Shown: piece by piece, positions 5,501-63,000 of the stretch
Layout of the letters: each line of letters begins with the position of its first letter
Position numbering within the stretch: position 1 is the stretch's first letter
Virus record (IMG/VR): IMGVR_UViG_3300035701_007101
DNA: 64,000 bases
Origin: a virus
Taxonomy: Duplodnaviria; Heunggongvirae; Uroviricota; Caudoviricetes
Reading direction: 5' to 3' (one strand)
Notes under the pieces: model-generated
The model's input: only the letters and a program-made list of their open reading frames with translations
The model's database searches: none
Told to the model about the DNA's origin: nothing
Position numbers and translations under genes: made by a program

Positions 5501-6401
5501 ACTTTTAATTTATTATGGATGGTTAAGCGCGTTTAATTCTGGAGTTAATCAATGGAACAATGATTCAGTTGCTCATGATTTTGCAAAATATCAAATAATT
5601 GTTTTTGGTGATGGTATTGCAGATCCAAATCACAGTGATTATACTAATACAGTGTATGTAACTGCTAAAATTAAGCAATATAATCCAGAAACAAAAATAT
5701 TTGGATATGTTTCATCAAATCAAAATTATAGTTCATTTTGTGCAAAAGTAGATTTATTAGCTAATATATGTGTTGATGGTGTGTTCATGGATGAGTCTGG
5801 TTATGATTTTGGTGTCACAAGAGCTAACTTTAATCAAAAAGTCACATATATTAAGACAAAATTATATAGAGCATGTTTTGTAAATGCTTGGAATATTGAT
5901 CATGTGTTAGGTACCACTAATGATCCATCTTATCCAAATAGTGTTTATAATCCTGGATTAGCTGTTTCTAATTTAGAAATTGGTGATTGGTACACAGCTG
6001 AGTCATTTGTAGTAAATCCATCTTATCCAGGTGGATTTGCAACTGCTAGTGATTGGAAAACTAGAGGAGATAAAATAAAAAATTCTAGAAATACATATAG
6101 AATAAATGTTGCTGCTTCAGGTGTTATTGATAATAATGATATTAATGGTCAAAGTAAATCAGATTTTTCTTATCATGCAGCTTTAGGATATGAGTTTCAA
6201 GCACATGGAACTTCAGACATTAATTATGCAGCTAGTTCAGCTGCTGTGAAGATGTTTAATGATGCAATTAATGTTTATTGGAGAACAGGAACATCAATTG
6301 CTTGGACTAAATCAGGAAATATATATTATCGCAATGGGCAAAATCAGCAGCGCTTAAATTTAAATTTTAATACACAACAAAGTTATTTAACTACATATTA
6401 A
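5493..6401 (+). CDS. Hypothetical protein (possibly glycoside-hydrolase-like TIM-barrel; weak)
   Basis: ORF overlaps upstream gene by 8 nt (coupled). Asp/Glu-containing segments 'DGVFMDESGYDFG' reminiscent of GH-like families, not diagnostic. Confidence 0.4.
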   Translation: MLKLLIYYGWLSAFNSGVNQWNNDSVAHDFAKYQIIVFGDGIADPNHSDYTNTVYVTAKIKQYNPETKIFGYVSSNQNYSSFCAKVDLLANICVDGVFMDESGYDFGVTRANFNQKVTYIKTKLYRACFVNAWNIDHVLGTTNDPSYPNSVYNPGLAVSNLEIGDWYTAESFVVNPSYPGGFATASDWKTRGDKIKNSRNTYRINVAASGVIDNNDINGQSKSDFSYHAALGYEFQAHGTSDINYAASSAAVKMFNDAINVYWRTGTSIAWTKSGNIYYRNGQNQQRLNLNFNTQQSYLTTY

Positions 6402-6472
6402 AGTATATTTTTTCTTTATTAATCACAGATATAATAATATTAAAAAGAAAAACATTAAAACAAGGAGAATAT

Positions 6473-9400
6473 ATGTCAATTGATTTATCAGATCTGTTAG
6501 CAAAATTCTTACATGAACCTATTATAGTTACATCTACTAGAAGTCAACATGTAGATTTAGGAAAAACAGTTGCTTTAATTGTTGCAGCCATAGGTTGGCC
6601 ACAAATGACGTATCAATGGAAGAAAAATGGTGTTGTTATTACTGGCATTGATCATTGTGCATTATTACTTCTTAGGAAAGTATCTGTCATTGATGCTGGT
6701 GATTACACATGTACAGTGACAAACAAATATGGAAGTACTGTATCTCCTGTTTGTAGACTTGATGTTCATGCAATGCCGTTCGTACTTGTGCAGCCTGTTG
6801 CTGTTACTATCGATGAAGCAACTGCATTAACATTATCAGTTGTTGTAGCAGGATCATTACCAATATCATATCAATGGCAAAAGAATGGAATTGATATAAT
6901 TGGTGCAATATCTTCTACATATACAAAAGCTTCTTCAGAAGTTCAAGATACAGGCTTTTATTCATGTAAAGCTGTTAATCAATATGGACTTGTTACTAGC
7001 AAATCAGTTGCTGTTATAGTCAATCAAGTAGGTTTTGCTCCAAAAATTGATGTTCAACCTATAGGATCAAGCATTTTTGACGGTGGTAGTTTTTATTTAT
7101 CAGTTGTTGCATCTGGAACAATTCCGCTGTCATATCAATGGAAAAAGAATGGATCAATTATTACAGGAGCAATTGAAAATTTTTATGCTAAGAATGGTGC
7201 TGTAATGTCTGATTCTGGATCTTATACTTGTGTTGTTACTAATAACAATGGATCAGTTGAAAGCGTTGCTGCTGTTATATCAGTTGTAGGTGTTGCTCCA
7301 ATAATTGATGAACAACCTCAAGATGTTACTATTTATGACGGTGGAGACTTTTCTTTATCAGTCACAGTTCATGGAACAATTCCACTATCATATCAATGGA
7401 AGAAAAATGGTTCAATCATTGGTGGTGCAACAAGTGCAACATATATTAAAACTAATGCTGTAATGTCAGATTCTGGTTCTTATACTTGTGTTGTTACAAA
7501 TGTTATCGCATCTACTGAAACAATAGCTGTTGCTGTTGTAGTTCAAGGCGTAATTCCTGTAATTGACACTCAACCTCAGGATGTTACTATTTATGATGGT
7601 GGAGACTTTTCTTTATCAGTTACAGCTCATGGAACTTCTCCATTGTCATATCAATGGACAAAGAATAATGTTGATATTGGCGGTGCAACTAGTTCAACGT
7701 TTACTAAATCTCCGGCTGGAATGACTGACACTGCATCTTATGCTTGTATTGTGTCAAATATAGCTGGATCGACTTCAACTGATGAAGTTATTGTAACAGT
7801 TCAGGGCGTTGTTCCAATAATTGATGAACAACCACAGAATGTTACTATTTATGATGGTGGAAATTTTTCTTTATCAGTTACAGCTCATGGAACTTCTCCA
7901 TTGTCATATCAATGGAAAAAGAATAATATTGATATTGGTGGTGCAACTAATTCAACTTATTCTAAAGTTGGAGCGCTAATTAGTGATTCTGCACATTATG
8001 TTTGCGAAGTTTCAAATATTATTGGAACTACTAGAACTAATATTGCTGTTGTTACAGTTCAAGCTATTGTTCCGACGATTCAAGTACAGCCTAAAGATGT
8101 AACAATTGATGATAATGAAATTTTTACATTGACTATTGCTGCTACTGGAACGTTACCTTTATTGTATCAATGGAAGAAAAATGATATTGATATTCTGGGT
8201 GCAAATAGTGCGATATATTCTAAAGTTAGTGTCATGAGTGATTTAGGATCTTACACTTGTGTTGTTACAAATGCAGGAGGGTCTATAACTAGTGATGCCG
8301 CTGCAGTAGTAGTAGTAGGAGTTGCGGCTGAAGTTGTTAGCATTGAACCAGACAGTGTAGCAATTGTTGACGGTGAAAATTTTACTTTGACTGTTGCTGC
8401 TATAGGAACTCCTGTATTAACATATCAATGGAAGAAAGGTTTGTCAAATATTCCAGGTGCAACATTATCAGTCTATAATAAAGTTGGCGCTTTAATGACA
8501 GATTCAGGATCTTATACTTGTGTTGTTACAAATGATTATGGCACAGACACTAGTGCAGCTGTCATTGTGGCAGTAGCAGGTATTGCGCCAGTAATTGATG
8601 ATCAACCTCAGGGTGTTTCAATTGTTGACGGTGAAGATTTTACTTTATCAATTACAGCTCATGGAACAATTCCATTAGCATATCAATGGAAAAAAGGTGG
8701 TGTTGTTATTGAAGGAGCAACTAATTCAACTTATTCTAAAGTCTGCGCTTTAATAACAGATTCAGGATCTTATACTTGTGTTGTTACAAATGTAGTTGAT
8801 TCTATTACAAGCAGCGCAGCTATAGTGACTGTTGCAGGAATTGCTCCAGTAATTATGTCAATGACAGGTCCTCAAGGTAATGAAGTGTGGCAAGATATTG
8901 GAACAGCTTTTACGATAATTTTAGTTGCTGCAGGAACTGAACCGCTGTCTTATCAATGGAGAGTTGATTTTACAGGAACTGAAAATGATGATGGTTTAGG
9001 AATTAGAGATATTGTTGGAGCAATTGATACAGTTTATTCAGTAACTAATGCACAAAAAACTGTTTCAGGATTTTATTCTTGTAAAGTGACAAATGTATTT
9101 GGTGTGGCAACGAGTTATTCAATGCTAGTCAATATTGGTCAAGTACCAATGGTAATTAGCAATCCTGAAAATGTTACAGTTGATGAAAGACAATCTTTTC
9201 AGTTAGTAAGTCAAGCAAGAGGAGCATTTTTAAAGTTTCAATGGACAATAAATAGTTTACCAGTAGGCTCATTTGAATCAGTTACGCTTGATGGTCATGC
9301 GATTTTTACAAAACAAGCAGAAGTTTCAGATTTTGGTGTTTACAGTTGCAGATTCGTTAGTTGTTTAGAAAATGGCGATATTCCTGTAGATGCAAAATAT

Positions 9401-10624
9401 GCTTATAGTAAAGCTGTAATTGTATTAGTAACTGAAATTGGATTTGCTCCTGAAATTACTATTCAACCAGTCGGTGTTCAAATTCCTAAACCTGGTGTTG
9501 TAATTACTGGTGGTCAAACAGGCATTGCTGAAGTCGGTACTGTTCAACAAACAATAGCTATGTCTTCACTTGGTGATTATCAAACAATTTTTTCTAATAG
9601 TAACTATGCTCAGTTTTCATCAAATTTTGGAGCTACATGGGTAGCAAGACGTATTGGTCCATATTGGAATCAGTCTGTTAGTGTGTCTGGCAGTGGACAA
9701 TATCAGACGTCTTTTGCTACTGAAGGACGAGGACTGTATGTTTCAGCTAATTATGGTGTAAGTTGGGCGCTGAAAACAACAACTGAAGTAACGAATCCAT
9801 ATATTAGATCTAGTTCAATGGACAATTCTGGACAATATCAATTGGTATTGAATGAAATTTATGGTACTGCAGGAGCTTGGTTATCCAGAGATTATGGAAA
9901 TACTTGGACTAAAGTTGTAGCTCAAGGTGGGTGGGGTGCAACTGCTATATCTGCTAATGGTCAATATATGGCTGTAGCTTTAGCTGCTGTTGGATTTTGG
10001 AGGTCTACTGATTATGGCATAACTTGGACAAAACTTGTCAATTCTCCCTCATATAATGCGTACCAATTTAGAAGTCTTGCATTATCTTATGATGGAAGGA
10101 TTTGGTATTGGGTGGGTCAAAACAGTAATGTATTTGCATCTTCTGATTACGGTGCATCTTTTTATGTTCATTCAGCTTCACCGGCTGGTATAACGTGGTT
10201 ACGTCTTAGATGTTCTATTGATGGTAAAGTCATAGTTGGTGCTGCTGCAGGTCGTCCAATTTATTTTTCAAGAGATTATGGTGCAACATACAATATATTG
10301 CCAGGTTCTGAAGGTAAAGAATGGTCTGATATTGCAATATCAGCTGATGGTTCGAGAATAACTGGTGTAATGACAAATGCTAACATATATGTGTTTACTA
10401 TTTATGAAAGCCCGATTTCATTTACAGTCAGCTTAACTGTTATTGGAACTCCTCCATTATCATATCAATGGGAAAAAGAAGGAATAATTGTTCCTGATGC
10501 AACACAATATTTTTATTACAAGAATTCAGCTCAACCTTCTGATCTTGGTAATTACACTTGTGTTGTAACAAATAATTATGGTGAAATTGAAAGTGATATT
10601 GCAAGAGTTGAAATGGTTCCATAG
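6473..10624 (+). CDS. Giant surface/adhesin-like protein: about 13 tandem Ig-like (I-set-type) domains + BNR/Asp-box beta-propeller + terminal Ig domain
   Basis: 'SYQWKKNG...' followed by 'YTCVVTN..GS' recurs about every 90 aa, 13-14 times (I-set Ig signature). C-terminal region carries repeated Asp-box motifs S-x-D-x-G-x-T-W ('SRDYGNTWTKV','STDYGITWTKL','SANYGVSWAL','SSDYGASF','SRDYGATYN'). Strong RBS AAGGAGAATATATG. Ends with TAG followed by a terminator hairpin. Confidence 0.8.
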   Translation: MSIDLSDLLAKFLHEPIIVTSTRSQHVDLGKTVALIVAAIGWPQMTYQWKKNGVVITGIDHCALLLLRKVSVIDAGDYTCTVTNKYGSTVSPVCRLDVHAMPFVLVQPVAVTIDEATALTLSVVVAGSLPISYQWQKNGIDIIGAISSTYTKASSEVQDTGFYSCKAVNQYGLVTSKSVAVIVNQVGFAPKIDVQPIGSSIFDGGSFYLSVVASGTIPLSYQWKKNGSIITGAIENFYAKNGAVMSDSGSYTCVVTNNNGSVESVAAVISVVGVAPIIDEQPQDVTIYDGGDFSLSVTVHGTIPLSYQWKKNGSIIGGATSATYIKTNAVMSDSGSYTCVVTNVIASTETIAVAVVVQGVIPVIDTQPQDVTIYDGGDFSLSVTAHGTSPLSYQWTKNNVDIGGATSSTFTKSPAGMTDTASYACIVSNIAGSTSTDEVIVTVQGVVPIIDEQPQNVTIYDGGNFSLSVTAHGTSPLSYQWKKNNIDIGGATNSTYSKVGALISDSAHYVCEVSNIIGTTRTNIAVVTVQAIVPTIQVQPKDVTIDDNEIFTLTIAATGTLPLLYQWKKNDIDILGANSAIYSKVSVMSDLGSYTCVVTNAGGSITSDAAAVVVVGVAAEVVSIEPDSVAIVDGENFTLTVAAIGTPVLTYQWKKGLSNIPGATLSVYNKVGALMTDSGSYTCVVTNDYGTDTSAAVIVAVAGIAPVIDDQPQGVSIVDGEDFTLSITAHGTIPLAYQWKKGGVVIEGATNSTYSKVCALITDSGSYTCVVTNVVDSITSSAAIVTVAGIAPVIMSMTGPQGNEVWQDIGTAFTIILVAAGTEPLSYQWRVDFTGTENDDGLGIRDIVGAIDTVYSVTNAQKTVSGFYSCKVTNVFGVATSYSMLVNIGQVPMVISNPENVTVDERQSFQLVSQARGAFLKFQWTINSLPVGSFESVTLDGHAIFTKQAEVSDFGVYSCRFVSCLENGDIPVDAKYAYSKAVIVLVTEIGFAPEITIQPVGVQIPKPGVVITGGQTGIAEVGTVQQTIAMSSLGDYQTIFSNSNYAQFSSNFGATWVARRIGPYWNQSVSVSGSGQYQTSFATEGRGLYVSANYGVSWALKTTTEVTNPYIRSSSMDNSGQYQLVLNEIYGTAGAWLSRDYGNTWTKVVAQGGWGATAISANGQYMAVALAAVGFWRSTDYGITWTKLVNSPSYNAYQFRSLALSYDGRIWYWVGQNSNVFASSDYGASFYVHSASPAGITWLRLRCSIDGKVIVGAAAGRPIYFSRDYGATYNILPGSEGKEWSDIAISADGSRITGVMTNANIYVFTIYESPISFTVSLTVIGTPPLSYQWEKEGIIVPDATQYFYYKNSAQPSDLGNYTCVVTNNYGEIESDIARVEMVP

Positions 10625-12230: not shown

Positions 12231-12287
12231 TTGCGACATAAATATATGTCAAAAATAGTAGGAACTATTTGAATTAAAGGAAAAATA

Positions 12288-12494
12288 ATGAAGCATTTAT
12301 CTGCAATTCAGACCGAATTTTTAAAAGAAGCTCGAAAGTGGAATGATTTGTCGATTGAGCAACAAAGAACTTATTTAAAGAAGCATCCAAAAAGTAAGAA
12401 AAAAATTAATGCAAAAGATTTTATGAAAGATTTTTCTCATGATGAACAAGTTATGTATTTAGGGCGACATCCAAGACTTAAAAAACATATTTAA
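12288..12494 (+). CDS. Small hypothetical protein, copy 2 of the 'HPKS' family
   Basis: 'RKWNDLSIEQQRTYLKKHPKSKKK' and 'GRHPRLKKH' parallel ORF 2161..2601. RBS AAAGGAAAAATAATG. Confidence 0.45.
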   Translation: MKHLSAIQTEFLKEARKWNDLSIEQQRTYLKKHPKSKKKINAKDFMKDFSHDEQVMYLGRHPRLKKHI

Positions 12495-23586: not shown

Positions 23587-24753
23587 ATGAAAGCAATTTA
23601 TGCATTTTCGGGTGATCCAATAACATTTGGTCACATTGATATTATAGAAAGAGCTGCTAAGGTTTTTACAAAAGTGTTAGTTTGTATTGGCAGTAATCCA
23701 GATAAAAAGTATATGTTTACACTTGAACAAAGATTGCAAATGGCCCAAGATGCATTGTCGTCAATTAAAAATGTTGACGTCAAATCTTTTTCAGGATTGC
23801 TTGTTGACTTTGCTTTTGAGCAAAACATTTCAGTTATAATAAAAGGTGTTAGAAATACTACAGATTTTGAATATGAAAATACTCTTCATGCTGTAGGCGA
23901 AAGTCAAAAATTAGGTATTGAAACATTTATATTGTTTGCAAAACCACAATTGGCTCATGTTAGCTCTAGTACAGTTAAGTCAATTCAAAAAGAACATGGC
24001 TTTATTCATGAATATGTTACATTGAATGTTAAAGAAGCTTTAGAGAAGCAGATGTCAAAACAGCTTATTATTGGTGTGACTGGTGAAATTGCTGCTGGAA
24101 AATCGTATGTAACTGATGCATTAGTTAGTTTGCTGGATAAGTCAAAAATTGAAGCTCATAATATTGATTTAGATATTATTGCACATGAAATATTAGGTAG
24201 TTTAAAATTGCCTCAATATGTTGAAGTTAGACACAAAATATCTGCTAGATTTGGTGAAACCATTAAGGATCTTTATGATTCTATTAATAGAAAAAAATTA
24301 GGAGCAATAGTGTTTAAGGATTCAAATGCTCTTAAAGATTTAAATGACATAATGAGAGATTCAATACTTGTAAGAATTAAAAGAGAATTAAATAACAAAG
24401 AAGGCATTATCTTTTTGAATGCTGCTTTACTTGTAGAAGCAGGTATGACAGATTTATGTAATAATAATGTGATTTTAGTTAAGTGTGACAAAGTTGTTCA
24501 GAGATCACGTCTTTACAAACGAGGCCTTTCAACTGTTCAATTAAATAAACGATTAAAATCTCAATATTCTTATGATGAAAAGAAAGCAGTTCTTGCTGAG
24601 AGAATAAGAGAACATAACAAATATACAGGTAATATATTTATTGTAGATACTTCAAAAAATGACTCTGACATTATAAATACTGCTAAATTATTATCAAATT
24701 TGCAAAGCGGTGATTCTAAAGGATTGTGGAAAAACAAATTTTTGACTTTATAA
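23587..24753 (+). CDS. Bifunctional phosphopantetheine adenylyltransferase / dephospho-CoA kinase (CoaD-CoaE fusion)
   Basis: N-terminal 'KAIYAFSGDPITFGHIDIIERA' is the PPAT (CoaD) signature (GTFDPIT.GH..I.ERA). C-terminal half has the P-loop 'IIGVTGEIAAGKSYV' and 'NIDLDIIAHE' typical of DPCK (CoaE). Confidence 0.7.
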   Translation: MKAIYAFSGDPITFGHIDIIERAAKVFTKVLVCIGSNPDKKYMFTLEQRLQMAQDALSSIKNVDVKSFSGLLVDFAFEQNISVIIKGVRNTTDFEYENTLHAVGESQKLGIETFILFAKPQLAHVSSSTVKSIQKEHGFIHEYVTLNVKEALEKQMSKQLIIGVTGEIAAGKSYVTDALVSLLDKSKIEAHNIDLDIIAHEILGSLKLPQYVEVRHKISARFGETIKDLYDSINRKKLGAIVFKDSNALKDLNDIMRDSILVRIKRELNNKEGIIFLNAALLVEAGMTDLCNNNVILVKCDKVVQRSRLYKRGLSTVQLNKRLKSQYSYDEKKAVLAERIREHNKYTGNIFIVDTSKNDSDIINTAKLLSNLQSGDSKGLWKNKFLTL

Positions 24754-24824
24754 CCCTCTATAACTCAGTGGTAGAGTGGCGTTCTCTAAAAATGCTGTCA
24801 TCAGTTCAAATCTGATTAGAGGGA
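24754..24824 (+). tRNA. Suppressor tRNA, anticodon CUA (reads UAG amber)
   Basis: Manual cloverleaf fold. Acceptor CCCTCTA/TAGAGGG (7 bp), U8, D-stem ACTC/GAGT with loop AGTGGTA, anticodon stem GCGTT/AATGC, loop C-U-CUA-A-A (anticodon at 24786-24788), variable 4 nt, T-arm ATCAG-TTCAAAT-CTGAT, discriminator A. No encoded CCA. Confidence 0.8.
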
Positions 24825-24837
24825 TTGATAAATTATA

Positions 24838-24861
24838 AGAGGGATTAAAATCCCTCTTTTT
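24838..24861. terminator. Bidirectional terminator hairpin between the tRNA and the convergent minus-strand genes
   Basis: AGAGGGAT-taaa-ATCCCTCT perfect 8-bp stem followed by a T run. Confidence 0.55.
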
Positions 24862-25243
24862 ATGCAAAATTTAAGTGCTTAAAAATCTCGCCAGTATCAA
24901 TACATGCAATAGCTGTAACTTGATTATTCAAATCAGGTTCTTTAAATGACACATATATTTTTTTACGAGCAGCAAGTTTTGCTGCCCATAAATTTAAAAC
25001 TGATTCATTTCTTATACCAAGAAATATAAGATATGAATTATTCCATTTTTTATATGCTTCTAAATCACCTTTTAATGAATACTCGACAATAGCATGAGCA
25101 CCTTGCACGCACCGATACGTTTGATCTAGATCTTTACGCACCAATACATACATTCTCGGTTCTCGAATATTCATTAATCCAACTCCTAATAAGTTCTTGA
25201 TCAGGTTCGTTACCTTCTGCACATTTTGACTCAATTTGCTCAT
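24860..25243 (-). CDS. Putative peptidyl-tRNA hydrolase, PTH2 family (start uncertain; may be the internal Met near 25153)
   Basis: 'RMYVLVRKDLDQTYRCVQGAHAIVEY' resembles the Pth2 core 'KMVIVVRSDIKMGKGKIAAQVAHAA'. Length about 115 aa for the domain. Overlaps the upstream ORF if the first Met is used. Confidence 0.45.
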   Translation of the reverse strand: MSKLSQNVQKVTNLIKNLLGVGLMNIREPRMYVLVRKDLDQTYRCVQGAHAIVEYSLKGDLEAYKKWNNSYLIFLGIRNESVLNLWAAKLAARKKIYVSFKEPDLNNQVTAIACIDTGEIFKHLNFA

Positions 25244-25436
25244 ATTTAGTTCCTCGCATTAAACAATATGCAATATGTTTATGTCTGTATTGCCATCGTT
25301 CAAGTTTTAATTTGAATTGTAATTCACCAGCATAAAGACAACTTCTTTGAGTTTCTTTGAGATTCTTTTTATTAATTTTAATTTGAGAGGCTAATTGCTT
25401 AAGTTCGTTTTTGAAAGAAAGAATATTTGAATTCAT
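25134..25436 (-). CDS. Hypothetical protein
   Basis: 100-aa ORF overlapping the PTH2-like ORF's 5' region. Confidence 0.3.
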   Translation of the reverse strand: MNSNILSFKNELKQLASQIKINKKNLKETQRSCLYAGELQFKLKLERWQYRHKHIAYCLMRGTKYEQIESKCAEGNEPDQELIRSWINEYSRTENVCIGA

Positions 25437-27401: not shown

Positions 27402-27619
27402 TCCTTTGTATAGTTTTTTTTACTTAATTTTTCACATTCTTTACAATATGTTTCAGACAAATGCCCTTTTTTACCCCAGACAGAGAGAGGAATTTCAGTT
27501 CGCATTACTTTTTTATTACCACATAAAGCAGGCTGACCGTTTAAACCAGTCTTTGATAAATGGAAATGCCACATGCCTTCTATACCTTCAACTATTTTTA
27601 AATTCTTTTGCATTTTCAT
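27392..27619 (-). CDS. Small zinc-ribbon-like protein
   Basis: 'CGNKK...CKECEK'. Confidence 0.35.
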   Translation of the reverse strand: MKMQKNLKIVEGIEGMWHFHLSKTGLNGQPALCGNKKVMRTEIPLSVWGKKGHLSETYCKECEKLSKKNYTKECL

Positions 27620-27812
27620 ACTCTTCTGTATATTGTATTATTTTTTCACAATCAGTTTTATCAAGTTCACCAATATGAATTTTTTTCTTTCCCATTTTAT
27701 TTGATATCCAAGAATAAGCTTCATTTTTAGTCATTTTGCCGTTTTTCCATAATTTATCAAATGCATTGTGCGCTTTAATTCGCCAATCTTTAACTTCTTT
27801 GGTTGCGGGCAC
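27588..27812 (-). CDS. Small hypothetical protein (GTG start in track; true start uncertain)
   Basis: Protein-like sequence; overlaps the upstream zinc-ribbon ORF in a different frame. Confidence 0.3.
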   Translation of the reverse strand: MPATKEVKDWRIKAHNAFDKLWKNGKMTKNEAYSWISNKMGKKKIHIGELDKTDCEKIIQYTEEYENAKEFKNS

Positions 27813-27814
27813 TC

Positions 27815-27982
27815 CTAATGGCTCACTTTCAGATTTGCACCATGAGAGCCATTACAATTAGGATAATTGATACAACTATAAAATTTTTTACTTTGACCAT
27901 TGTATTTGAATTTTGAAGTCTCTTTGAGGATCATGTCTGATTTGCAATATGGACAAGCATTTTTTAATGTTGTCGTTGTCAT
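27815..27982 (-). CDS. Small topoisomerase-type C4 zinc-ribbon protein (55 aa), TAG-terminated
   Basis: Own translation: MTTTTLKNACPYCKSDMILKETSKFKYNGQSKKFYSCINYPNCNGSHGANLKVSH-TAG. 'CPYC...SCINYPNC' resembles zf-C4 of topoisomerase. RBS AAGAG 5 nt upstream. Under 60 aa so absent from the track. Confidence 0.3.
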   Translation of the reverse strand: MTTTTLKNACPYCKSDMILKETSKFKYNGQSKKFYSCINYPNCNGSHGANLKVSH

Positions 27983-31265: not shown

Positions 31266-32464
31266 TGTCAAAAAAACTATTAACAAATTTAAAGGAGAAG
31301 AGTATGTCACCGAAAACGATGGGTTTAACTGCTTTAGTTTCTATTGCATGTTTATTTTTTCTAATTTCATGTTTTAAATTGTTTGAAAATAATAATGCAA
31401 ATCAAATTATGTGTGTTCAAAGTCCTATACTTGGTAAATTAACATGGTACATTACTGCCGGCACTAAATGGCAAGGATTTGGAAAAATTACAAAATATGA
31501 TAAACGTTCTATTTATAATTTTTCATTACCAGTTAGATTTAATGATGCAGGACACGCCACTATGACTGGATCAGTTCAATTTGATATGTCATTATCTAAA
31601 GAACATCTTGATAAAGTACAATCTAAGTTTGGTACTGAAGAAGCTATAAAAACTCAATTGTTACAAACTGTAGTTAATAAGTGTTTGTATATGACTGGCC
31701 CAATGATGAGTAGTAAAGAATCGTATGCTGAAAAGAGAAGCTATCTAATTAATTATGTAGAAGATCAAATATCGAATGGCATTTTTAGGACTGCTATAAA
31801 AGATACTACAATTAAAGACCCTATTACAGGAGTAGATAAGATGGCTTCTTTAGTTGAAATTGTCACTGTAAACAAAATTCCTCAGCGTCAGGAAGAAGCT
31901 GTATTAAAAGAATTTGGAATTAGAGCATTTAACTTTTCTATTGAGAAATTAGATTATGACGAAACTGTTGAGAAACAAATACAGCAACAACAACAAATGA
32001 CAATGGCAGTACAGACGTCAATAGCTGATGCAAAGAGAGCAGAGCAAGCAGCTATTACTGCAGAAGCTAATGGAAAAGCAAATGCTGCTACTGCAAAATG
32101 GGAACAAGAAACTAATAAAGCTCGTGCTGTTACTATAGCTGAAAAAGATAGAGATAGTTGTAAATTAGTTATGGAAGCTGCAGCATTTAGGAAGCAAGCA
32201 AGTATATTGGAAGGCGAAGGAGAAGCTACTAAACGTCGATTGATATTACAGGCAGACGGTGCTTTATCCATTAAGCTCGACAAGTGGATTGAATCTCAAA
32301 AAGTATGGGCTGTAGCATTTGCAGCATATAAAGGTCAGATTGTTCCCACTACTGTCATGGGTGGAAATTTTAATGGTCAAAACGGTGCAACTACTTTTAT
32401 GGATATAATGGCTGCAAAAGCTGCTAAAGATTTATCTTTAGACATGAGTGTGCCAAATAAATAA
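31265..32464 (+). CDS. SPFH/band-7 (flotillin/HflC-like) membrane protein
   Basis: N-terminal TM segment, then Ala/Glu/Gln/Lys-rich coiled region 'AKRAEQAAITAEANGKANAATAKWEQETNKARAVTIAEKDRD...EGEGEATKRRLILQA' typical of the SPFH C-terminal region. Confidence 0.6.
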   Translation: MSKKLLTNLKEKSMSPKTMGLTALVSIACLFFLISCFKLFENNNANQIMCVQSPILGKLTWYITAGTKWQGFGKITKYDKRSIYNFSLPVRFNDAGHATMTGSVQFDMSLSKEHLDKVQSKFGTEEAIKTQLLQTVVNKCLYMTGPMMSSKESYAEKRSYLINYVEDQISNGIFRTAIKDTTIKDPITGVDKMASLVEIVTVNKIPQRQEEAVLKEFGIRAFNFSIEKLDYDETVEKQIQQQQQMTMAVQTSIADAKRAEQAAITAEANGKANAATAKWEQETNKARAVTIAEKDRDSCKLVMEAAAFRKQASILEGEGEATKRRLILQADGALSIKLDKWIESQKVWAVAFAAYKGQIVPTTVMGGNFNGQNGATTFMDIMAAKAAKDLSLDMSVPNK

Positions 32465-32538
32465 TTAATATTTGATAATGATAATGATAATTATGTTGTC
32501 TAAAACTAATTTTTCACAATTTTCAAAGGATTAAAACA

Positions 32539-32820
32539 ATGATGTCGATTTTTATTGGTAATCTTCCATTCTCATCAACTGAAGAATCTATTAAAAATCT
32601 CTTATCTACTTATAGCAATGTTATATCTATCAAAATAATTATTGATCGAGAAACAGGCAAATCGAAAGGTTTTGCTTTTGCTGAGGTTGATGATGGCGAT
32701 AAAGTGATTGCTAATCTTAATGGAACTGATTTTAATGGTCGAAAATTAGTAGTCAATCAAGCAAGACCAAAAGAAGATAAACCAAGAAATGACAATCGAA
32801 AACCGAATTATGTCAGGTGA
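32539..32820 (+). CDS. RRM-type RNA-binding protein
   Basis: RNP-2 'IFIGNL', RNP-1 'KGFAFAEV', 93 aa like bacterial Rbp proteins. Confidence 0.7.
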   Translation: MMSIFIGNLPFSSTEESIKNLLSTYSNVISIKIIIDRETGKSKGFAFAEVDDGDKVIANLNGTDFNGRKLVVNQARPKEDKPRNDNRKPNYVR

Positions 32821-32839
32821 CGCAAAACAAGTTATATAT
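32810..32839. repeat. 30-bp exact repeat copy A (ATGTCAGGTGACGCAAAACAAGTTATATAT)
   Basis: Identical 30-mer found again at 38673..38702. Here it spans the stop codon of the RRM gene. Confidence 0.7.
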
Positions 32840-33136
32840 TGAAAAGTAATAATTATTTTATAATTTCTAAAATAATACACGGTAGTGATTATCGGAAGTG
32901 CTCTTGGAGTTGTCTAGTTGTAAATAGAAACGTTGAAGAGAGAAGTTACTTTTGTAACGATCAATAGTAGAAATCGCTAGGACAATGAAGTTACATTAGA
33001 CACAAATGTAGCTTCATTATGTCATTATCATAGAATCACATCTGCTAAGCTATGATATGACGTAGATATTTCAAACATTCACAAATCATTGAAATTATTT
33101 CAATTGTTAAGGAGTTACATGTCAACGTAAAATATA

Positions 33137-34105
33137 TTGACTAAACTATTCATAAACTCATTTAAAAGGAGATTTATGGATAAAAGAAATTTCGTTGATT
33201 ACTCATTCGTTGACCCTATTCTTCTACAAAATCCTGAGATAACTTGGGCTGAATTTAATAAAATGTATTCAGTTAAAATGTCAGATGCTACATTTTACAA
33301 TAGGAAAAAATTTCTACTTAAAACGCTTGCAAATGAAGCTAATCCTTTAATTGATCAATCGCAAGACTTACTTACTCACTTTCACTTTCGACCTAATACT
33401 AAAACGTATGAATTAGTTAAAATGTTAATTGAGAAGCCTGAAGGCATTGATATTACTGCTGCTTCCGGTGCATTAAAGTTGAGTCAAAAGAACATTTGCG
33501 ACATTATTAGTCGTCTCAAGAATCGTAAACAAATGTCGATTGGTCATTCTGGCAATCTTATTTATATTAACAACACTAAATCAAAGCAACTAACAGTTGT
33601 CGAAAAGACTACGCAAGATCAATTATTGCCTAGCTCATTAGTGCCGGTTGAAAAGTTGCCGAGGCAGGGATCGTTAATGTATAAGATACTTGAATTATTA
33701 ATAGTTCATAAAGAGACGGGTATAAGTATTGATGAATTAAAGGGTCAATTAAAGGTCAAACGTACATCTATTTATTATCTTATTCATCACTTGAAGAAGA
33801 AAGGTATAAATATAAATTCAACACACGGTATTTATAAAATCAAAGTATCAAAAGCAATGGTGAAATCTCAGCAATTTGTTACAAAATCTGATGCATTGCA
33901 ATTTGTTACGAAATCTGATGCATTACCTTCACAAAACAAAATATTGTTGGAGCTTTCTAATTTAACAGATTCTGATTTGGGCGATGCACTTCAACACATA
34001 AAGTTGGCACGTTTTCATAGTGCTGTTTATCAAGCAATCATTGAATCAAACGCAATTGTAGTACGTTTAGAAAAAGAAATACAATCTGGACGTCAACTTA
34101 TATAA
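33137..34105 (+). CDS. Hypothetical protein with internal 27-bp tandem duplication (FVTKSDALQ x2)
   Basis: ORF. Direct repeat 'caatttgttacRaaatctgatgcattR' at 33872..33925. Confidence 0.45.
   Translation: MTKLFINSFKRRFMDKRNFVDYSFVDPILLQNPEITWAEFNKMYSVKMSDATFYNRKKFLLKTLANEANPLIDQSQDLLTHFHFRPNTKTYELVKMLIEKPEGIDITAASGALKLSQKNICDIISRLKNRKQMSIGHSGNLIYINNTKSKQLTVVEKTTQDQLLPSSLVPVEKLPRQGSLMYKILELLIVHKETGISIDELKGQLKVKRTSIYYLIHHLKKKGININSTHGIYKIKVSKAMVKSQQFVTKSDALQFVTKSDALPSQNKILLELSNLTDSDLGDALQHIKLARFHSAVYQAIIESNAIVVRLEKEIQSGRQLI
33872..33925. repeat. 27-bp tandem duplication inside ORF 33137..34105
   Basis: caatttgttacaaaatctgatgcattg / caatttgttacgaaatctgatgcatta. Confidence 0.6.
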
Positions 34106-34126
34106 AACCGTTGAAAGGAGCAGTTA

Positions 34127-34546
34127 ATGCAATCAATACAGTTGTTAACAGAAAATCAAAAACAAATTCAAGGTCTTTTGAAAGATCGCACGTATCTTCA
34201 TGCAAAAGAAATCGCTGAAGTTGTTGAAGTTCCTATAACAAGAGTATATTCGGCTATTAAGCAAATGAGGATAAGTGGCATTGGCGTGATGACTATCAAT
34301 AAAGGGTATGTGTTGTCGAACAAAGCTACAAAAAGAGACGACATTAATTTCACGCGACGGTTATATGGACGAAGAGCAAGCGATTTATTGGCTGTTATGG
34401 TCTGCAAAGATGATATTCAAAAGCGGTGGAACACTCCTCGCGATAGAGCAATGTTTCAGAAAATTACATCGCCATTACTTGTAAATTTGAGTAATTCAAA
34501 AGGTATGCAAGTTTTGTTGACTATTGAAAAGGAATTAAAAGACTAA
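34127..34546 (+). CDS. Hypothetical protein (possible HTH)
   Basis: 'LHAKEIAEVVEVPITRVYSAIKQMR' is HTH-like. RBS GGAG. Confidence 0.4.
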   Translation: MQSIQLLTENQKQIQGLLKDRTYLHAKEIAEVVEVPITRVYSAIKQMRISGIGVMTINKGYVLSNKATKRDDINFTRRLYGRRASDLLAVMVCKDDIQKRWNTPRDRAMFQKITSPLLVNLSNSKGMQVLLTIEKELKD

Positions 34547-35170
34547 ATGCCAAAAGTAAAAGTAAATGGCGAGATTTTTCTTGCTGCATGGCCAAAAGAA
34601 AGCGACAAAATAATTATAGCTGTTGCTAAAGCATATAAACGTGGTAAACTAATACAATGGCAATTAGCTGAATCTGAAGGTGCTCTCAATGGTGTTTTAA
34701 ATGTACCAATTAAAAAAATAAGATGTAGATACAATTTTTTGAGAGATAAAATAAAAATTTATGCTAAAAGAAGACTTCAAAAGCAAATCACTCGTGTAAG
34801 TAGTTATCACAATTTTAAAAGAAGATTAACTCTTCAATATGCTGCTGGTTACAATTCAAAAAGGACAAAATGGTTATTAAAAGATGAAATTTTACTATTA
34901 TGTCTTGCTAAAAAATATACAATAAATAACAGAATTAAATGGAAGCTTCTGGTTAATGATAAAAAAGTAAAAAAATTACCAACAAATAATATTAAATCAT
35001 TGTCACATACTTACAATAGATTTATTAATCTAGACGTTCATAGAAAGTCTGCTTTGAAATGGAAAAAGAAAAATCGACAAAGATTTAATGAGACTGTTCA
35101 AAAAAGATTAAAAAATAAAAGACAGCTTATACGACAATTTCTTTGGAATAAAATAGGAATAAGATCATAG
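34547..35170 (+). CDS. Highly basic (K/R-rich) hypothetical protein
   Basis: 207-aa ORF starting at the previous stop (TAAATG). Confidence 0.4.
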   Translation: MPKVKVNGEIFLAAWPKESDKIIIAVAKAYKRGKLIQWQLAESEGALNGVLNVPIKKIRCRYNFLRDKIKIYAKRRLQKQITRVSSYHNFKRRLTLQYAAGYNSKRTKWLLKDEILLLCLAKKYTINNRIKWKLLVNDKKVKKLPTNNIKSLSHTYNRFINLDVHRKSALKWKKKNRQRFNETVQKRLKNKRQLIRQFLWNKIGIRS

Positions 35171-35587
35171 TTTAAGAGTGATAGCAATTTATATAACTTT
35201 TGGATGATTTTATAGTAACCAATAGAAATTGCGTCGTAATCAAAACGTAATAATAGGAGTAAGATTTGTAAAATAAAGACTTTATTGCACAGATTAACTA
35301 AAAAGAAGTTAAAAAATGCAAAAAAAAACATCACAAAAACTTAACGTACAAAAACTTAAAGTAAAACTAATTAGTAACGAACTTGGGTGGTTTGTGTCGA
35401 TTGAACAATCTAAGTCTTTTTCATATTATTGGTACTCTTTTTTAATATGGTTAATGAGAACATTTATGAGATATGAAATTAAAATTGCCAAAATATGTAG
35501 AAACATTCATAACTTTCTTTACTGTGATCATAATGATATACGATAAATTAGTACTACAATTGTAGGTCGTTTTGAATAAGGAAAAAT

Positions 35588-39296: not shown

Positions 39297-39369
39297 AGAA
39301 AATTTGCTCAATTGGTAGAGCGAAAGATTTAGGATCTTTACGTTGTTGGTTCAAATCCGACATTTTCAT
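39297..39369 (+). tRNA. tRNA with anticodon UAG (Leu codon CUA/CUG by standard rules) but class-I (short variable arm) structure; A1-A72 mismatch
   Basis: Manual fold. Acceptor AGAAAAT/ATTTTCA (6 bp plus 1-72 mismatch), D-arm GCTC-AATTGGTA-GAGC, anticodon stem AAAGA/TCTTT with loop UU-UAG-GA, variable 5 nt, T-arm GTTGG-TTCAAAT-CCGAC. Confidence 0.5.
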
Positions 39370-39604
39370 CCAAACGTTTTATTCAATTTCGCCCTTCTTT
39401 TAATAAAAATTCTGTTGATACATGAGGTTAAACTCATGGTTTTAAAGGGTGCTGGTGAAAAGTCATGATTCCTCCTCGCCCTTTATTTTAAAGGTATAAA
39501 AATTATGAAAATGACAACGAACTTCACTTTTAATTGTAGCAGTTGCTTTAATAGTAGCAACTCAGTGAGGTTCATTTTCTAATTATTCCATTATAGAACA
39601 ACTA

Positions 39605-40488: not shown

Positions 40489-41631
40489 ATGTATAAATGC
40501 AATGATTGTAAATTAGATTTTAAAAATCGATCACAATTAGCAAATCATTTTAGATGGAAACATAAACAATGTTTAATTTTCAAATGTAATAAATGCAACA
40601 AAGAAATAACAGATAAAAGCGGTTTGACGATTCATGAAAAATTTTGTACAGGTGTTAAAGAAAAGAAAAACAATATTTGTCCAAAATGTAACTTTACAAT
40701 TAAAACAAACTATAAGAAACATGTTGTTTCATGTAATGGGTTAGGTCCTCGTCGATTAAGAACAAAACATCGCGAGAGAGTTGTTTTAACAAAAGAAAAT
40801 ATTGAAATAATTAGAAAACAATATGATGATAATGTGCCATTAAAAATTATTAGACAGCAAAATAAGTTTTCAAAATTACAAGTTAGACATGCATTAAAAG
40901 GATATAAGAAGCGATCAAAGTCAGACGTTATTAAAAGAAGTCACAAAGAAGGTAGAATGTGCAGACTGCAATTTCACGAATCTTTTGCTGAAAAGTTTTT
41001 TAATGACTTTTTACAAAAATCAGGATATAAATTAGGATTGGATTATATTCGTGAATATAGAGTTTCTTATTATCGAATTGATTTCTTTTTTCAAAATTTG
41101 AATATAGCAATAGAAGTAGATGGATCACAACATTATACATATAATCATCAAATAGAAATTGATAAAAGAAAAGATCAATTATTGAATAATCTTGGTATTA
41201 AAGTAATAAGGTTACCTTGGAAAGTGGTTTGTAATGAGTCAAAAAATACATTAAATGAGGTACTAGATATTATTAAAAACAAAAATGTTGATGAATTTAA
41301 TAATAAACAGAAAATTAAATTAGCAGATTTATTAAAAAAACGAAAAGAAACAAAGAAAAAGCAAAAACAAAGAAAGAAAAATTTGCCAAAAAAATACATT
41401 GAAAAATTAATAATTGCATTAAATAAATGCATTGTATATAAAACATATATGAAGCGCATGAATGATTTAAACAATGTTGATTTAAAAAAATGGGGAACTA
41501 TTTCTGAGCTTTCAAATTTATGGAATGTTTCTCATACTCAGGTTAGACGATATATTGAAAAACATTGTTTGTTAGAAAAATCAAAGACGGTGTGGCAGAG
41601 TTGGTACATGCTACGGTCTGCAAAACCGTAA
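40489..41631 (+). CDS. C2H2 zinc-finger + DUF559/Vsr-like (PD-(D/E)xK) endonuclease-domain protein; candidate tRNA-associated homing-type endonuclease
   Basis: Three C2H2-like fingers ('YKCNDCKLDFKNRSQLANHFRWKH','FKCNKCNKEITDKSGLTIHEKFC','CPKCNF...HVVSC'). 'YRIDFFFQNLNIAIEVDGSQH...LGIKVIRLPW' matches the DUF559 pattern. The 3' end overlaps tRNA-Cys by 46 nt. Confidence 0.5.
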   Translation: MYKCNDCKLDFKNRSQLANHFRWKHKQCLIFKCNKCNKEITDKSGLTIHEKFCTGVKEKKNNICPKCNFTIKTNYKKHVVSCNGLGPRRLRTKHRERVVLTKENIEIIRKQYDDNVPLKIIRQQNKFSKLQVRHALKGYKKRSKSDVIKRSHKEGRMCRLQFHESFAEKFFNDFLQKSGYKLGLDYIREYRVSYYRIDFFFQNLNIAIEVDGSQHYTYNHQIEIDKRKDQLLNNLGIKVIRLPWKVVCNESKNTLNEVLDIIKNKNVDEFNNKQKIKLADLLKKRKETKKKQKQRKKNLPKKYIEKLIIALNKCIVYKTYMKRMNDLNNVDLKKWGTISELSNLWNVSHTQVRRYIEKHCLLEKSKTVWQSWYMLRSAKP

Positions 41632-50038: not shown

Positions 50039-50233
50039 TCCTTACCAGTTATGGGGGTGACCTTTTACTATCCCCATTTTTCCTCTGCACGTCATCCATG
50101 TAATACCATGAATATAGTTTATTCCTTTAGGCATTTAATGCTATACACGTTAGATACTTATTGGACATATCGCGCTGAGAGGTGGTTCGCTTCACTCATT
50201 AAAGATGGCTGCCTCTAAGCCCACTGCAATCGT

Positions 50234-61160: not shown

Positions 61161-61177
61161 TATTATCCTTATGCTTT

Positions 61178-61510: not shown

Positions 61511-61532
61511 AATTTAGATCTCATCATTAACA

Positions 61533-62923: not shown

Positions 62924-63000
62924 TTCATTTCCTTTAAAAATCTGTCTTTATCTTTAAAAAAATATGTATGTTGCACATATCTTCTAAAACTGCAGAAAAT

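Follow-up and report, generated by a model that had tools for sequence, protein, structure and literature searches.

A predicted amber suppressor tRNA linked to a PTH2-like hydrolase gene in a largely standard-code huge phage

The CUA tRNA and its neighbours

Here, we describe a tRNA gene with the amber suppressor anticodon CUA, and the genes that surround it, in a huge phage with a genome of at least about 300 kb (Caudoviricetes; IMG/VR record IMGVR_UViG_3300035701_007101). The stretch analysed, referred to as the window, is 64,000 nucleotides long, and with flanks of 18.9 kb on its left and 8.9 kb on its right the sequence read amounts to ~92 kb (~30% of the genome). These 92 kb hold the replication genes and a baseplate/tail module; the genes for the head (major capsid, portal), for packaging (terminase) and for lysis lie outside. 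No close relative of the phage was found among GenBank phages, and contigs of this genome do not appear among the 80 of 115 matches listed by a metagenome scan.

The final gene of a long rightward block of replication genes encodes a fusion of CoaD-like and CoaE domains (CoaDE). The tRNA begins with the very next base after its TAA stop, which makes co-transcription of CoaDE and the tRNA probable (Table 1). Beyond the tRNA lies a terminator-like hairpin that would be common to the tRNA on the plus strand and to the convergent operon of the PTH2-like gene on the minus strand. The PTH2-like open reading frame (ORF) is 36 nt from the tRNA, convergent with it and not co-oriented, and is accompanied by a small helical ORF. 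An earlier note on this DNA, made from its letters without database searches, had placed CoA-synthesis and PTH2-like genes beside the tRNA, and both proved real by Pfam matches and by a PTH2 family profile.

Table 1. Features at the tRNA locus, in window coordinates
Feature	Position	Strand	Evidence
CoaD-like/CoaE fusion gene	23587..24753	+	Pfam CoaE 1.2e-23, CTP_transf_like 3.3e-18
tRNA, anticodon CUA (amber suppressor type)	24754..24824	+	ARAGORN, Rfam, fold, homologues
G+C-rich hairpin, AAGAGGGATT-AAAA-TCCCTCTT, T-runs on both sides	24837..24858		terminator scan: 9 pairs, 4 of them G-C
PTH2-like gene (peptidyl-tRNA hydrolase 2 superfamily), 104-127 aa by start codon	24860..25243	-	PHROG, family profile
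100-aa ORF, overlapping the start of the PTH2-like gene	25134..25436	-	homologues in module loci

ARAGORN called a tRNA with a CTA anticodon at exactly this position and strand and assigned no other anticodon, and Rfam RF00005 matched it over the full model (1-71) with 60.1 bits (gathering score 29; E=1.7e-10). The minimum-free-energy fold of 24754..24870 is a cloverleaf followed by the hairpin (z = -3.5; as good in 0 of 200 shuffles), which bears out the clean cloverleaf described earlier. The tRNA is a 71-nt class I molecule with a 4-nt variable loop, a 5-bp anticodon stem, two bases separating the acceptor and D stems, a 7-nt D-loop (AGTGGTA) with G18G19, and the T-loop TTCAAAT. Its anticodon loop reads C-U-CUA-A-A, with CUA at 34-36, U33 before it and a purine at 37; the discriminator is A73, the acceptor stem begins with C1:G72, and CCA is not encoded. 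When 24300..25300 was scanned against Rfam (E up to 10), the tRNA alone was matched, and no Theta or other ribozyme. Isotype assignment by similarity to ~290 other tRNAs from the fetched loci was inconsistent, the top matches being Thr, Lys, Glu, Trp and Phe by turns, and acceptor and discriminator features are heterogeneous among ~100 metagenomic CUA tRNAs. An archaeal-type tRNA-Tyr, considered from C1:G72, A73 and the short variable loop, was dropped because the homologue in the sister lineage and most family members have G1:C72.

Homologous CUA tRNAs of two related phages lie at the loci L143 (12308..12378) and L162 (4049..4120). L143 belongs to the sister lineage, whose ligase is 90% identical, and a homologous CUA tRNA is also kept by a relative whose ligase is 69% identical (R4). 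The anticodon is CUA in the window, L143 and L162 alike, L143 being an independent find at a syntenic site, the same CoaDE-tRNA junction, while for L162 and the other homologues the search pattern itself demanded the CTCTAAA loop. Relatives with 65-70% ligase identity were found to lack the CoaDE-tRNA junction. The tRNAs of the window and the sister lineage differ at 12 positions, which include three double compensatory pairs and one change from G-U to G-C, and remain 100% paired; across seven PTH2-linked homologues all stem cells (147/147) are paired, with changes on both sides in 17 of 21 pairs. Because homologous cloverleaves survive through compensatory changes that keep every stem pair, the tRNA is not a pseudogene, and the earlier description of it as functional-looking and not decayed stands.

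Amber codons in the readable genome

Amber suppressors in phages are usually read as markers of stop-codon recoding. The genes of the 92 kb end in 60 TAA, 21 TGA and 12 TAG codons (12/93, 13%), and none of the long ORFs in the 92 kb needs an in-frame TAG. ORFs of at least 100 aa cover 86% of the window in the standard code and 89% with TAG as sense. For window and flanks, code-11 ORF coverage is 0.86-0.94 and gains at most 0.03 with TAG as sense, while two truly recoded control loci that the same scans had turned up (L160 and L164) go from 0.32-0.35 in code 11 to 0.54-0.69. The baseplate/tail block is intact in code 11, with genes of 1875, 496, 1181 and 2147 aa, the 1181-aa gene being a phrog_6 baseplate wedge gene (7.6e-25, on its orthologue). 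Neither RF2 nor GlnRS or any other aminoacyl-tRNA synthetase is present among the Pfam-annotated genes of the 92 kb.

These results agree with the earlier note on two points: TAG still terminates genes of the window, among them those that end at 10624, 18924 and 23430, and there is no mark of global recoding, TAG being a stop throughout the window and 28 kb of flanks. It had also proposed a scan for genes split solely by an in-frame TAG; within the readable 92 kb there are none, and its own candidates are frameshifts. The ORF at 27815..27982 is part of a DUF3268 gene (27588..27982) split by a 1-nt deletion, so that read-through of the TAG would leave the frame unrestored; the orthologue in the sister phage is intact at 124 aa. 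The 'second part' of the HAD-like gene likewise reflects a frameshift, near 49900, and not a TAG.

Comparison with the sister lineage and with outgroups shows that at least three genes of the window lineage have gained their TAG stops anew. After the TAG stops of this phage, the next TAA or TGA follows at a median of 7 codons. TAG accounts for 11% of stops in suppressor-bearing lineages versus 19% in other lineages (p=0.09, a trend that is not significant), and the back-up stop lies at a median of 7 versus 19 codons (p=0.07, also not significant); fewer TAG stops and nearer back-up stops together hint at read-through pressure.

Linkage of PTH2-like genes to CUA tRNAs

The PTH2-like protein of the window matches PHROG 3668 'hydrolase' (2.4e-9), and alone against Pfam PTH2 it reaches E=0.015 and 15.9 bits, below the cut-off of 23. 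Its family gives clearer matches: 23 of 29 members match Pfam PTH2 (best 1.1e-9), and the family profile (A6) finds PTH2 structures in the PDB, 2zv3 at 3.3e-9 and five more below 1e-3 (1rzw, 1rlk, 1wn2, 1q7s and 1xty), with the matches to PTH2 structures extending to E=2e-3. Q24, H27, F77, E79 and T87 are invariant in the family alignment, and R13, D15 and P80 nearly so, as is the Asp beside P80 in the EPD motif. By these matches the neighbouring gene belongs to the PTH2 superfamily and encodes a putative hydrolase. With PTH2 proper (Pfam PF01981; archaeal and eukaryotic Pth2, PDB 2zv3 and 1q7s) the family has in common the Q..HA motif and the C-terminal acidic and Thr motifs; unlike it, this predicted hydrolase family is much diverged, phage-borne and tied to CUA tRNAs, and the window protein is without the GKGK loop. 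A single-sequence AlphaFold2 model of the protein (pLDDT 39) was too poor to use. The 100-aa ORF is predicted to be helical, carries the conserved motif YRHxHIAYxxxRGxxYxxIE, and belongs to no known family, searches of Pfam, PHROG and NCBIfam giving no match; its single-sequence AlphaFold2 model is a long helix (pLDDT 75, pTM 0.33).

The linkage was examined in 129 loci that were gathered solely by a CUA-tRNA pattern. A PTH2-like homologue is present in 41 of the 129 loci, in 31 of them with the tRNA downstream on the same strand, and in 17 of the 41 it is directly preceded by a homologue of the 100-aa ORF. Of 147 CUA tRNAs, 13 were at most 10 nt from a PTH2-like ORF, as against 0 of 306 other tRNAs from the same loci. 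Control loci totalling 463 kb contain no PTH2-like ORF, and an opal control, weak since ARAGORN found just 2 real UCA tRNAs in its 17 IMG/VR loci (TCA pattern), showed no adjacent PTH2-like ORF. Among 50,697 GenBank phage records only 37 carry a PTH2-like homologue, every one of them at least 223 kb long; the carriers include Lak, LR756500 and LR756501, with suppressor tRNAs nearby, and XacN1. Phage tmRNA genes are present in two of the CUA-tRNA loci, and a local recoding signature is lacking in 21 of the 23 PTH2-linked CUA loci of at least 6 kb.

The PTH2-like gene is a conserved partner of the CUA tRNA in many phages and not an incidental neighbour, a point that the earlier note overlooked. 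Small helical protein, PTH2-like hydrolase and tRNA(CUA) make up a conserved three-part module with strong linkage. This association is unexpected, recurrent and specific, and it extends over many unrelated metagenomic phages, including Lak and phages of 462-735 kb.

A proposed partial suppressor and its alternatives

UAG is never sense in the readable third of the genome and yet terminates 13% of the genes there, which makes partial suppression in competition with RF1 the likeliest function of the tRNA. Our preferred reading, to which we give a probability of about 0.5, is that of a predicted functional amber suppressor, set in a conserved hydrolase–tRNA module, partially suppressing UAG against RF1 in a phage that is largely standard-code; decoding a set of recoded genes is probably not what the tRNA does. 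It would most likely be transcribed at the end of the replication-gene operon, excised by host RNase P and 3' processing, given its CCA by the CCA-adding enzyme and charged by a host synthetase, with Gln or Lys the likeliest amino acid by analogy with E. coli amber suppressors. The competition with RF1 would then take place at the ordinary UAG stops of messages from host and phage alike, and the phage proteins would gain short tails only, since the next TAA or TGA follows after a median of 7 codons. The PTH2-like partner may, as a conjecture, clear the peptidyl-tRNA or blocked aminoacyl-tRNA by-products of that competition. The phage would probably benefit by becoming independent of RF1-dependent termination in the infected cell or by interfering with it, and the present state may be a first step to code change ('suppressor pre-emergence'). 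Persistence of the tRNA across the clade weighs against a partial suppressor and suggests a needed decoding job.

Known systems offer precedents. The jumbo phage XacN1 uses the standard code and carries two CUA tRNAs in its terminal repeats; in-silico read-through of its amber stops gave no targets (Yoshikawa et al. 2018, PMC5852040). The window phage resembles it in having a CUA tRNA together with the standard code, and XacN1 also encodes a PTH2-like homologue (H65), only ~35% identical to the window protein; whereas the spacing in the window is 36 nt, in XacN1 a 279-aa protein ends in this domain and the nearest tRNA is more than 4 kb away. A suppressor without reassignment was termed 'pre-emergence' in crAss-like phages (Yutin et al. 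2021, PMC7886860), and a standard-code Agate phage with an acquired suppressor is on record (Borges et al. preprint 10.1101/2021.08.26.457843); such suppressors have been proposed as a first step to recoding or as a means to impair host proteins. As in those cases, a suppressor is present in a low-GC phage in which no stop reassignment was detected, for the window phage in the 92 kb read. Those were recent single events, by anticodon point mutation or fresh acquisition, whereas the CUA family of the window persists at ~69% ligase identity and travels with a hydrolase gene.

Physical coupling of an accessory element to a phage suppressor tRNA is also known from the Theta (HDV-like) ribozyme-tRNA units of gut phages (Kienbeck et al. 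2024, PMC10879173); here the coupled element is instead a protein gene, and no ribozyme lies within 450 nt on either side. [quoted passage not shown] 2022, PMC9523058), and neither paper mentions a PTH2-like hydrolase. A further proposal, which we hold tentatively and at less than even odds, is that of a dedicated, widespread phage 'amber-decoding module' in which the hydrolase is mechanistically required for UAG suppression or regulates it. Its task might be to recycle the peptidyl-tRNA(CUA) that is lost when the tRNA competes with RF1, to edit the acylation state of the suppressor, or to rescue ribosomes once RF1-dependent termination has been shut down.

A rather unlikely alternative to the partial suppressor is late-gene recoding (code 15 in blocks), in which the tRNA, made from an early or middle operon, would decode TAG in head, packaging or lysis genes of the ~210 kb beyond the sequence read. 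The code-15 phages, in which TAG is read as Gln, comprise Lak, crAss-like, Agate and Jade phages with a 'code-change module' (Borges et al.; Peters et al. 2022, PMC9523058), and the window phage shares with them a phage suppressor tRNA in a standard-code region. Surveys link Sup-CTA tRNAs strongly to TAG recoding, which in the literature is often limited to late or hallmark genes while early genes stay standard, and the genes in which recoded stops usually occur (those for major capsid, portal, terminase and lysis) are the ones outside the 92 kb. The position of the tRNA at the end of a replication-gene operon would suit this arrangement, as would the retention of its family in relatives with ~69% identical ligases and the occurrence in TAG-recoded Lak phages of the same PTH2-like family at most 0.7 kb from the suppressor tRNA, there with the anticodon UUA. 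However, late genes are represented in the 92 kb by more than 10 large genes of the baseplate and tail, none of which has an in-frame TAG here or in relatives, and two presumed virion genes (the 1875-aa gene and that of a 1383-aa Ig-repeat protein) stop at TAG. TAG stops are moreover of ordinary frequency, new ones having arisen in the lineage, and unlike code-15 phages the 92 kb show no drop in code-11 density and encode no RF2 or synthetase. The 21 of 23 PTH2-linked loci that lack a recoding signature also count against it.

Another alternative is that the tRNA has no decoding target of its own and that the module serves counter-defence or rescue, keeping translation going when termination at UAG is impaired. 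The threats could be loss or inhibition of RF1, or toxins that cleave mRNA in the A site with a preference for UAG; the tRNA would let ribosomes continue as far as the following TAA or TGA, and stalled products would be recycled by the hydrolase, together with a tmRNA in some phages. The specific pairing of a hydrolase-like enzyme with CUA tRNAs, the tmRNA genes in two of the loci and the back-up stops a median of 7 codons after TAG are in keeping with such a role, and read-through has been proposed as an anti-defence strategy (PMC7886860). The argument is purely inferential, no defence or toxin gene having been identified, and it overlaps with partial suppression, from which it differs solely in the selective benefit; we regard it as improbable.

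It is more improbable still that the tRNA is not a decoder at all and serves as a 3'-end processing or stability element of the transcript, as a decoy, or survives as a neutral relic of a recoded ancestor. In most module loci the tRNA begins 1-7 nt past the stop codon of the PTH2-like gene, so that its processing would set the 3' end of the mRNA, and the 92 kb yielded no target codons. Yet the CUCUAAA loop, G18G19, the T-loop and all stems have been kept through many compensatory changes, a mere processing signal has no need of an intact anticodon arm, and the window tRNA is intact even though it is inverted relative to the PTH2-like gene. As for the 'tRNA-Pyl' label, which ARAGORN prints for any CTA anticodon, pyrrolysine tRNAs have a short D-loop without G18G19, a 3-nt variable loop, a 6-bp anticodon stem and one base between the acceptor and D stems, and go with pylS and pylBCD, whereas the window tRNA has a normal D-loop with G18G19, the TTCAAAT T-loop, a 5-bp anticodon stem, a 4-nt variable loop and a two-base spacer, and pylS and pylBCD are absent from the called genes, leaving this identity a negligible chance.

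The window phage, like XacN1, keeps a conserved suppressor while its visible genes, late baseplate genes included, end at UAG, and it is consequently a good system for studying the role of such a tRNA before, or without, recoding. With the PTH2-like linkage, phage code switching gains a concrete candidate for a missing component, one that can be tested. If true, the amber-decoding module would add a previously undescribed enzymatic component to the machinery of phage code change and would help to account for the retention of amber suppressors in XacN1 and other jumbo phages that use the standard code. As a natural tRNA-and-protein set, it may also be of interest for genetic-code-expansion work.

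A conserved tRNA with a CUA anticodon

ARAGORN detected six tRNAs in the window, five in a cluster and one, with anticodon CTA, beginning directly after the TAA stop of CoaDE, a CoaD-like/CoaE fusion gene (coordinates in the table); the program labels every CTA anticodon "Pyl", so the label carries no weight. All 71 nt matched the Rfam tRNA model (60.1 bits, gathering score 29, E=1.7e-10), and the minimum-free-energy fold of 24754..24870 is a cloverleaf followed by a hairpin (z-score -3.5; 0 of 200 shuffles as good), together confirming the CUA tRNA proposed in the earlier note. Read from the sequence, the tRNA has an acceptor stem of CCCUCUA/UAGAGGG, a D arm of ACUC-AGUGGUA-GAGU, an anticodon arm of GCGUU-CUCUAAA-AAUGC, a 4-nt variable loop (UGUC), a T arm of AUCAG-UUCAAAU-CUGAU, and a discriminator A with no encoded CCA. 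Its G18G19, TTC T-loop and 5-bp anticodon stem, which we take to be incompatible with tRNA-Pyl architecture, ruled out a pyrrolysine identity. An Rfam scan of 450 nt on either side found no ribozyme or other family.

CoaDE ends a long rightward block (helicase, DnaC/B, trigger factor, nuclease, ligase, methyltransferase, CoaDE), and a hairpin downstream of the tRNA also closes a convergent leftward block ending with a 100-aa ORF and a PTH2-like gene. We infer that the tRNA is co-transcribed with the replication genes; promoter-like matches around it were no commoner than in shuffled sequence.

In the sister lineage L143 (ligase 90% and CoaDE 89% identical), a CUA tRNA occupies exactly the same post-CoaDE junction. 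It differs from that of the window at 12 of 71 positions, with changes at pairs 1:72 (C:G to G:C), 10:25 (A:U to G:C), 11:24 (C:G to U:A) and 29:41 (G-U to G:C), and all 42 stem cells of the two tRNAs are paired. Relatives at 65-70% ligase identity have neither CoaDE nor a CUA tRNA near the ligase; one of them, IMGVR_UViG_3300032516_000008 (loci L145 and L162), carries a clearly homologous CUA tRNA that closes its main tRNA cluster (Phe, Asn, Ser, Cys, Thr, Sup). Across seven homologues (window, L143, L162, L134, L159, L150, L065), pairing holds in 147 of 147 stem cells, and both sides have changed in 17 of 21 pairs, compensatory changes that bear out the earlier view of a functional-looking rather than decayed gene. 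This pattern argues for purifying selection on the gene as a tRNA with a CUA anticodon, and the window tRNA is probably a real, conserved UAG decoder.

Similarity to other tRNAs gave no consistent isotype, and a provisional archaeal-Tyr-like identity was abandoned because of the 1:72 flip in L143. A73 is retained in six of the seven homologues. GlnRS and LysRS are the usual enzymes to charge CUA tRNAs among the amber suppressors of E. coli, and the combination of A73 and U35 is compatible with LysRS; phage recodings in the literature are of TAG to Gln. A gene for a CCA-adding enzyme lies just downstream of the ligase in the clade relative L140, and none was seen in 92 kb of the window genome, whose CUA tRNA has no encoded CCA.

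The host phage and its use of TAG

The window (30% G+C) is densely coding under the standard code and encodes an FtsK-like protein, a 1383-aa Ig-repeat protein, helicases, DnaC- and DnaB-like proteins, trigger factor, a Cas4-like nuclease, NAD-dependent ligase, PolX, RecA and a split DnaE with intein. GenBank phages hold no near match. The same genome (99.7-100% identity) was found in several Logan assemblies and in two JGI metagenomes, 3300035659 and 3300036761. It spans at least ~300 kb, since Ga0373628_0000021 (261,940 bp) starts at window position 17,149 and Ga0373627_0000389 extends 22.5 kb beyond the left end of the window. A baseplate/tail block makes up the left flank, with genes of 1875, 144, 154, 496, 1181 and 2147 aa; PHROG 6 (baseplate wedge) was matched at 7.6e-25 by the orthologue of the 1181-aa protein, and relatives have a 716-aa neighbour with matches to "tail protein" families. 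The clade comprises at least 20 related huge phages (ligase 59-90% identical, contigs up to 416 kb). NCBI records P0016, P0077 and P0100 come from clade contigs (58.7 kb, 102.9 kb) labelled "MAG: Nitrosarchaeum sp.", probably by mis-binning, because these contigs carry phage baseplate and bacterial-type replication genes.

Recoding of TAG was examined from -18.9 kb to +72.9 kb in window coordinates (~92 kb, roughly 30% of the genome), a region of replication and baseplate/tail genes. Under code 11 (TAG as stop), 0.86-0.94 of the window and its two flanks falls within ORFs of at least 100 aa, with a gain of no more than 0.03 when TAG is read as sense; the only large "TAG-containing" ORFs are genes that overrun their own stop and continue into the following one. 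That the method picks up recoding is shown by two control loci from the same DNA-pattern scans (L160 and L164), where coverage rises from 0.32-0.35 to 0.54-0.69 with TAG as sense and genes have up to 20 in-frame TAGs each. Stop codons in the 92 kb are 60 TAA, 21 TGA and 12 TAG, the last ending both replication genes and presumed virion genes (TAG for the Ig-repeat gene, TAG-TGA for the 1875-aa gene). TAG recoding is absent from this region, in agreement with the earlier note that TAG is still a stop. Two genes that had been read as split by TAG are instead frameshifted: the DUF3268 zinc-finger gene has a 1-nt deletion relative to an intact 124-aa L143 orthologue, and the HAD-like gene shifts to another frame near 49900. 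Comparison with the sister lineage and outgroups shows that at least three genes of the window lineage have acquired TAG as a derived stop, so new TAG stops are still arising alongside the tRNA.

TAG makes up 11% of stops in suppressor-bearing lineages vs 19% in others (p=0.09, not significant), and a back-up TAA or TGA follows TAG at a median of 7 vs 19 codons (p=0.07, not significant). In a relative without a CUA tRNA in its fetched loci, a TAG-ended 205-aa gene is followed in frame by a 1193-aa gene; the suppressor-bearing sister lineage has TAA at this junction, a single case that fits avoidance of a harmful read-through fusion.

Coordinates of features in the window and in related loci
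Feature	Sequence	Coordinates	Remarks
CUA tRNA	window	24754..24824 (+)	
CoaDE	window	23587..24753 (+)	
Hairpin	window	24837..24858	
PTH2-like gene	window	24860..25243 (-)	
100-aa ORF	window	25134..25436 (-)	
Small ORFs	window	2161..2601, 12273..12494 (+)	common motif WWNDL(T/S)I(K/E)(E/Q)QR(E/T)YL(R/K)(N/K)HPK; may be a paralogous family
1383-aa protein	window	6473..10624 (+)	~ten eukaryote-type immunoglobulin (I-set/Ig_3) repeats, 258-nt tandem units
DUF3268 gene	window	27588..27982 (-)	two-ORF calls also in three other assemblies of the genome
Intact DUF3268 orthologue	L143	15056..15430	
3-kb strain-level indel	window	32207..35183	also in L002; missing from 99.7-99.9% identical L001, L003
tRNA called Leu(UAG)	window	39297..39372 (+)	class-I size, no long variable arm, A1xA72 mismatch; unusual for Leu
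DUF559/zinc-finger endonuclease ORF	window	40489..41631 (+)	between tRNA-Ser and tRNA-Cys; also in L013, not called in strain L012, similar insertion in 65%-identity relative L141; looks like a mobile homing-endonuclease element within the tRNA cluster
HAD-like gene region	window	49581..50230 (+)	
~190 nt after HAD-like gene	window	50040..50230	no ORF, no Rfam match, G+C richer by eye; may be a non-coding RNA
Split DnaE (DNA polymerase III alpha)	window	58074..63885 (-)	three genes inserted between parts
DnaE N-terminal PHP part	window	63001..63885	
DnaE remainder	window	58074..61160	contains intein
RNA-ligase-like insert in DnaE	window	62141..62923	
CCA-adding enzyme gene	L140	13124..14446	
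205-aa/1193-aa junction	L023 vs L021	5597..9802 vs 5582..9796	
tmRNA genes	L163; L165	1949..2349; 4443..4839	CUA-pattern loci on IMG/VR contigs (162 and 193 kb); ARAGORN CUA call in L163, not in L165
Two tandem CUA tRNAs, differing in sequence	L019; L020; L168	621..777; 2386..2542; 6421..6574	other huge phages (340, 359, 735 kb)

Linkage of CUA tRNAs to a PTH2-like gene

In L162, L159 (a 424-kb contig), L150 and L154, a homologue of the PTH2-like gene is followed, on its own strand and after a gap of 2-7 nt, by the CUA tRNA, and a homologue of the 100-aa ORF precedes that gene in all but the truncated L159. Linkage was surveyed in loci fetched purely by a CUA-tRNA DNA pattern, using locally iterated HMMs seeded from the two window proteins. 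A PTH2-like ORF was present in 41 of 129 non-redundant loci (19 of 46 when only loci extending at least 1.5 kb to each side of the tRNA are counted), accompanied in 17 of the 41 by the small ORF; the tRNA was downstream on the same strand in 31 loci, with a gap of 1-7 nt in 12. Within 10 nt of a PTH2-like ORF lay 13 of 147 CUA tRNAs vs 0 of 306 other tRNAs from the same loci, and within 100 nt 19 vs 3. No PTH2-like ORF was found in 463 kb of clade loci fetched without the CUA criterion. A TCA-anticodon pattern gave an adjacent PTH2-like ORF in 0 of 17 IMG/VR loci, a weak control because ARAGORN gave a UCA tRNA call in few of them. Since the linked CUA tRNAs are diverse in sequence and acceptor features and the PTH2-like homologues share no more than 25-55% identity with the window protein, the linkage spans many lineages.

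The family profile matched PDB entry 2zv3 at 3.3e-9 (1rzw, 1rlk, 1wn2, 1q7s and 1xty down to 2e-3) and 23 of 29 members matched Pfam PTH2, which points to a diverged PTH2; the 100-aa protein matched no known family. By tblastn, only 37 of 50,697 GenBank phage records hold a homologue of the PTH2-like protein, all of at least 223 kb (Lak; 462-735 kb phages LR7565xx; XacN1; Xoo-sp13; Stenotrophomonas RAS14 and CM1; Aeromonas jumbo phages). Among eight neighbourhoods inspected, Lak-C1 has a UUA suppressor tRNA 0.7 kb from the gene, LR756500 a CUA tRNA 0.8 kb downstream and LR756501 two CUA tRNAs 2.2 kb downstream; the other five have no suppressor tRNA within 4-6 kb. XacN1 nonetheless carries two CUA tRNAs elsewhere in its genome (PMC5852040).

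Possible roles of the tRNA and hydrolase

We favor, with a probability of about 0.5, a partial suppressor acting in an essentially standard-code phage, in a module with a hydrolase that would handle peptidyl-tRNA or blocked aminoacyl-tRNA by-products. This reading has precedents in the "suppressor pre-emergence" described for crAss-like phages (PMC7886860) and in XacN1, for whose CUA tRNAs the authors found no targets (PMC5852040). The main rival, block-wise TAG recoding of head, packaging or lysis genes (capsid, portal and terminase among them) beyond the examined ~92 kb, is favored by the literature association of suppressor tRNAs with recoding but is less likely, as the baseplate/tail genes are TAG-terminated without in-frame TAG and TAG stops are still being gained. 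A rescue or counter-defence role, departing from partial suppression in the proposed benefit only, seems improbable. Readings as a non-decoder or remnant, against fully paired stems, or as tRNA-Pyl, against the arm architecture, are unlikely.

Phage amber suppressors are already known, including one in a standard-code jumbo phage. The phage recoding literature searched does not mention peptidyl-tRNA hydrolase, and PTH2, phage and suppressor tRNA were not found together in the literature searched, neither being proof of novelty. The apparent novelty lies in the specific and recurrent association of CUA tRNAs with both a small conserved protein and a PTH2-like hydrolase, and in a new phage clade, with genomes of at least 300 kb, that appears to keep this module without visible recoding.
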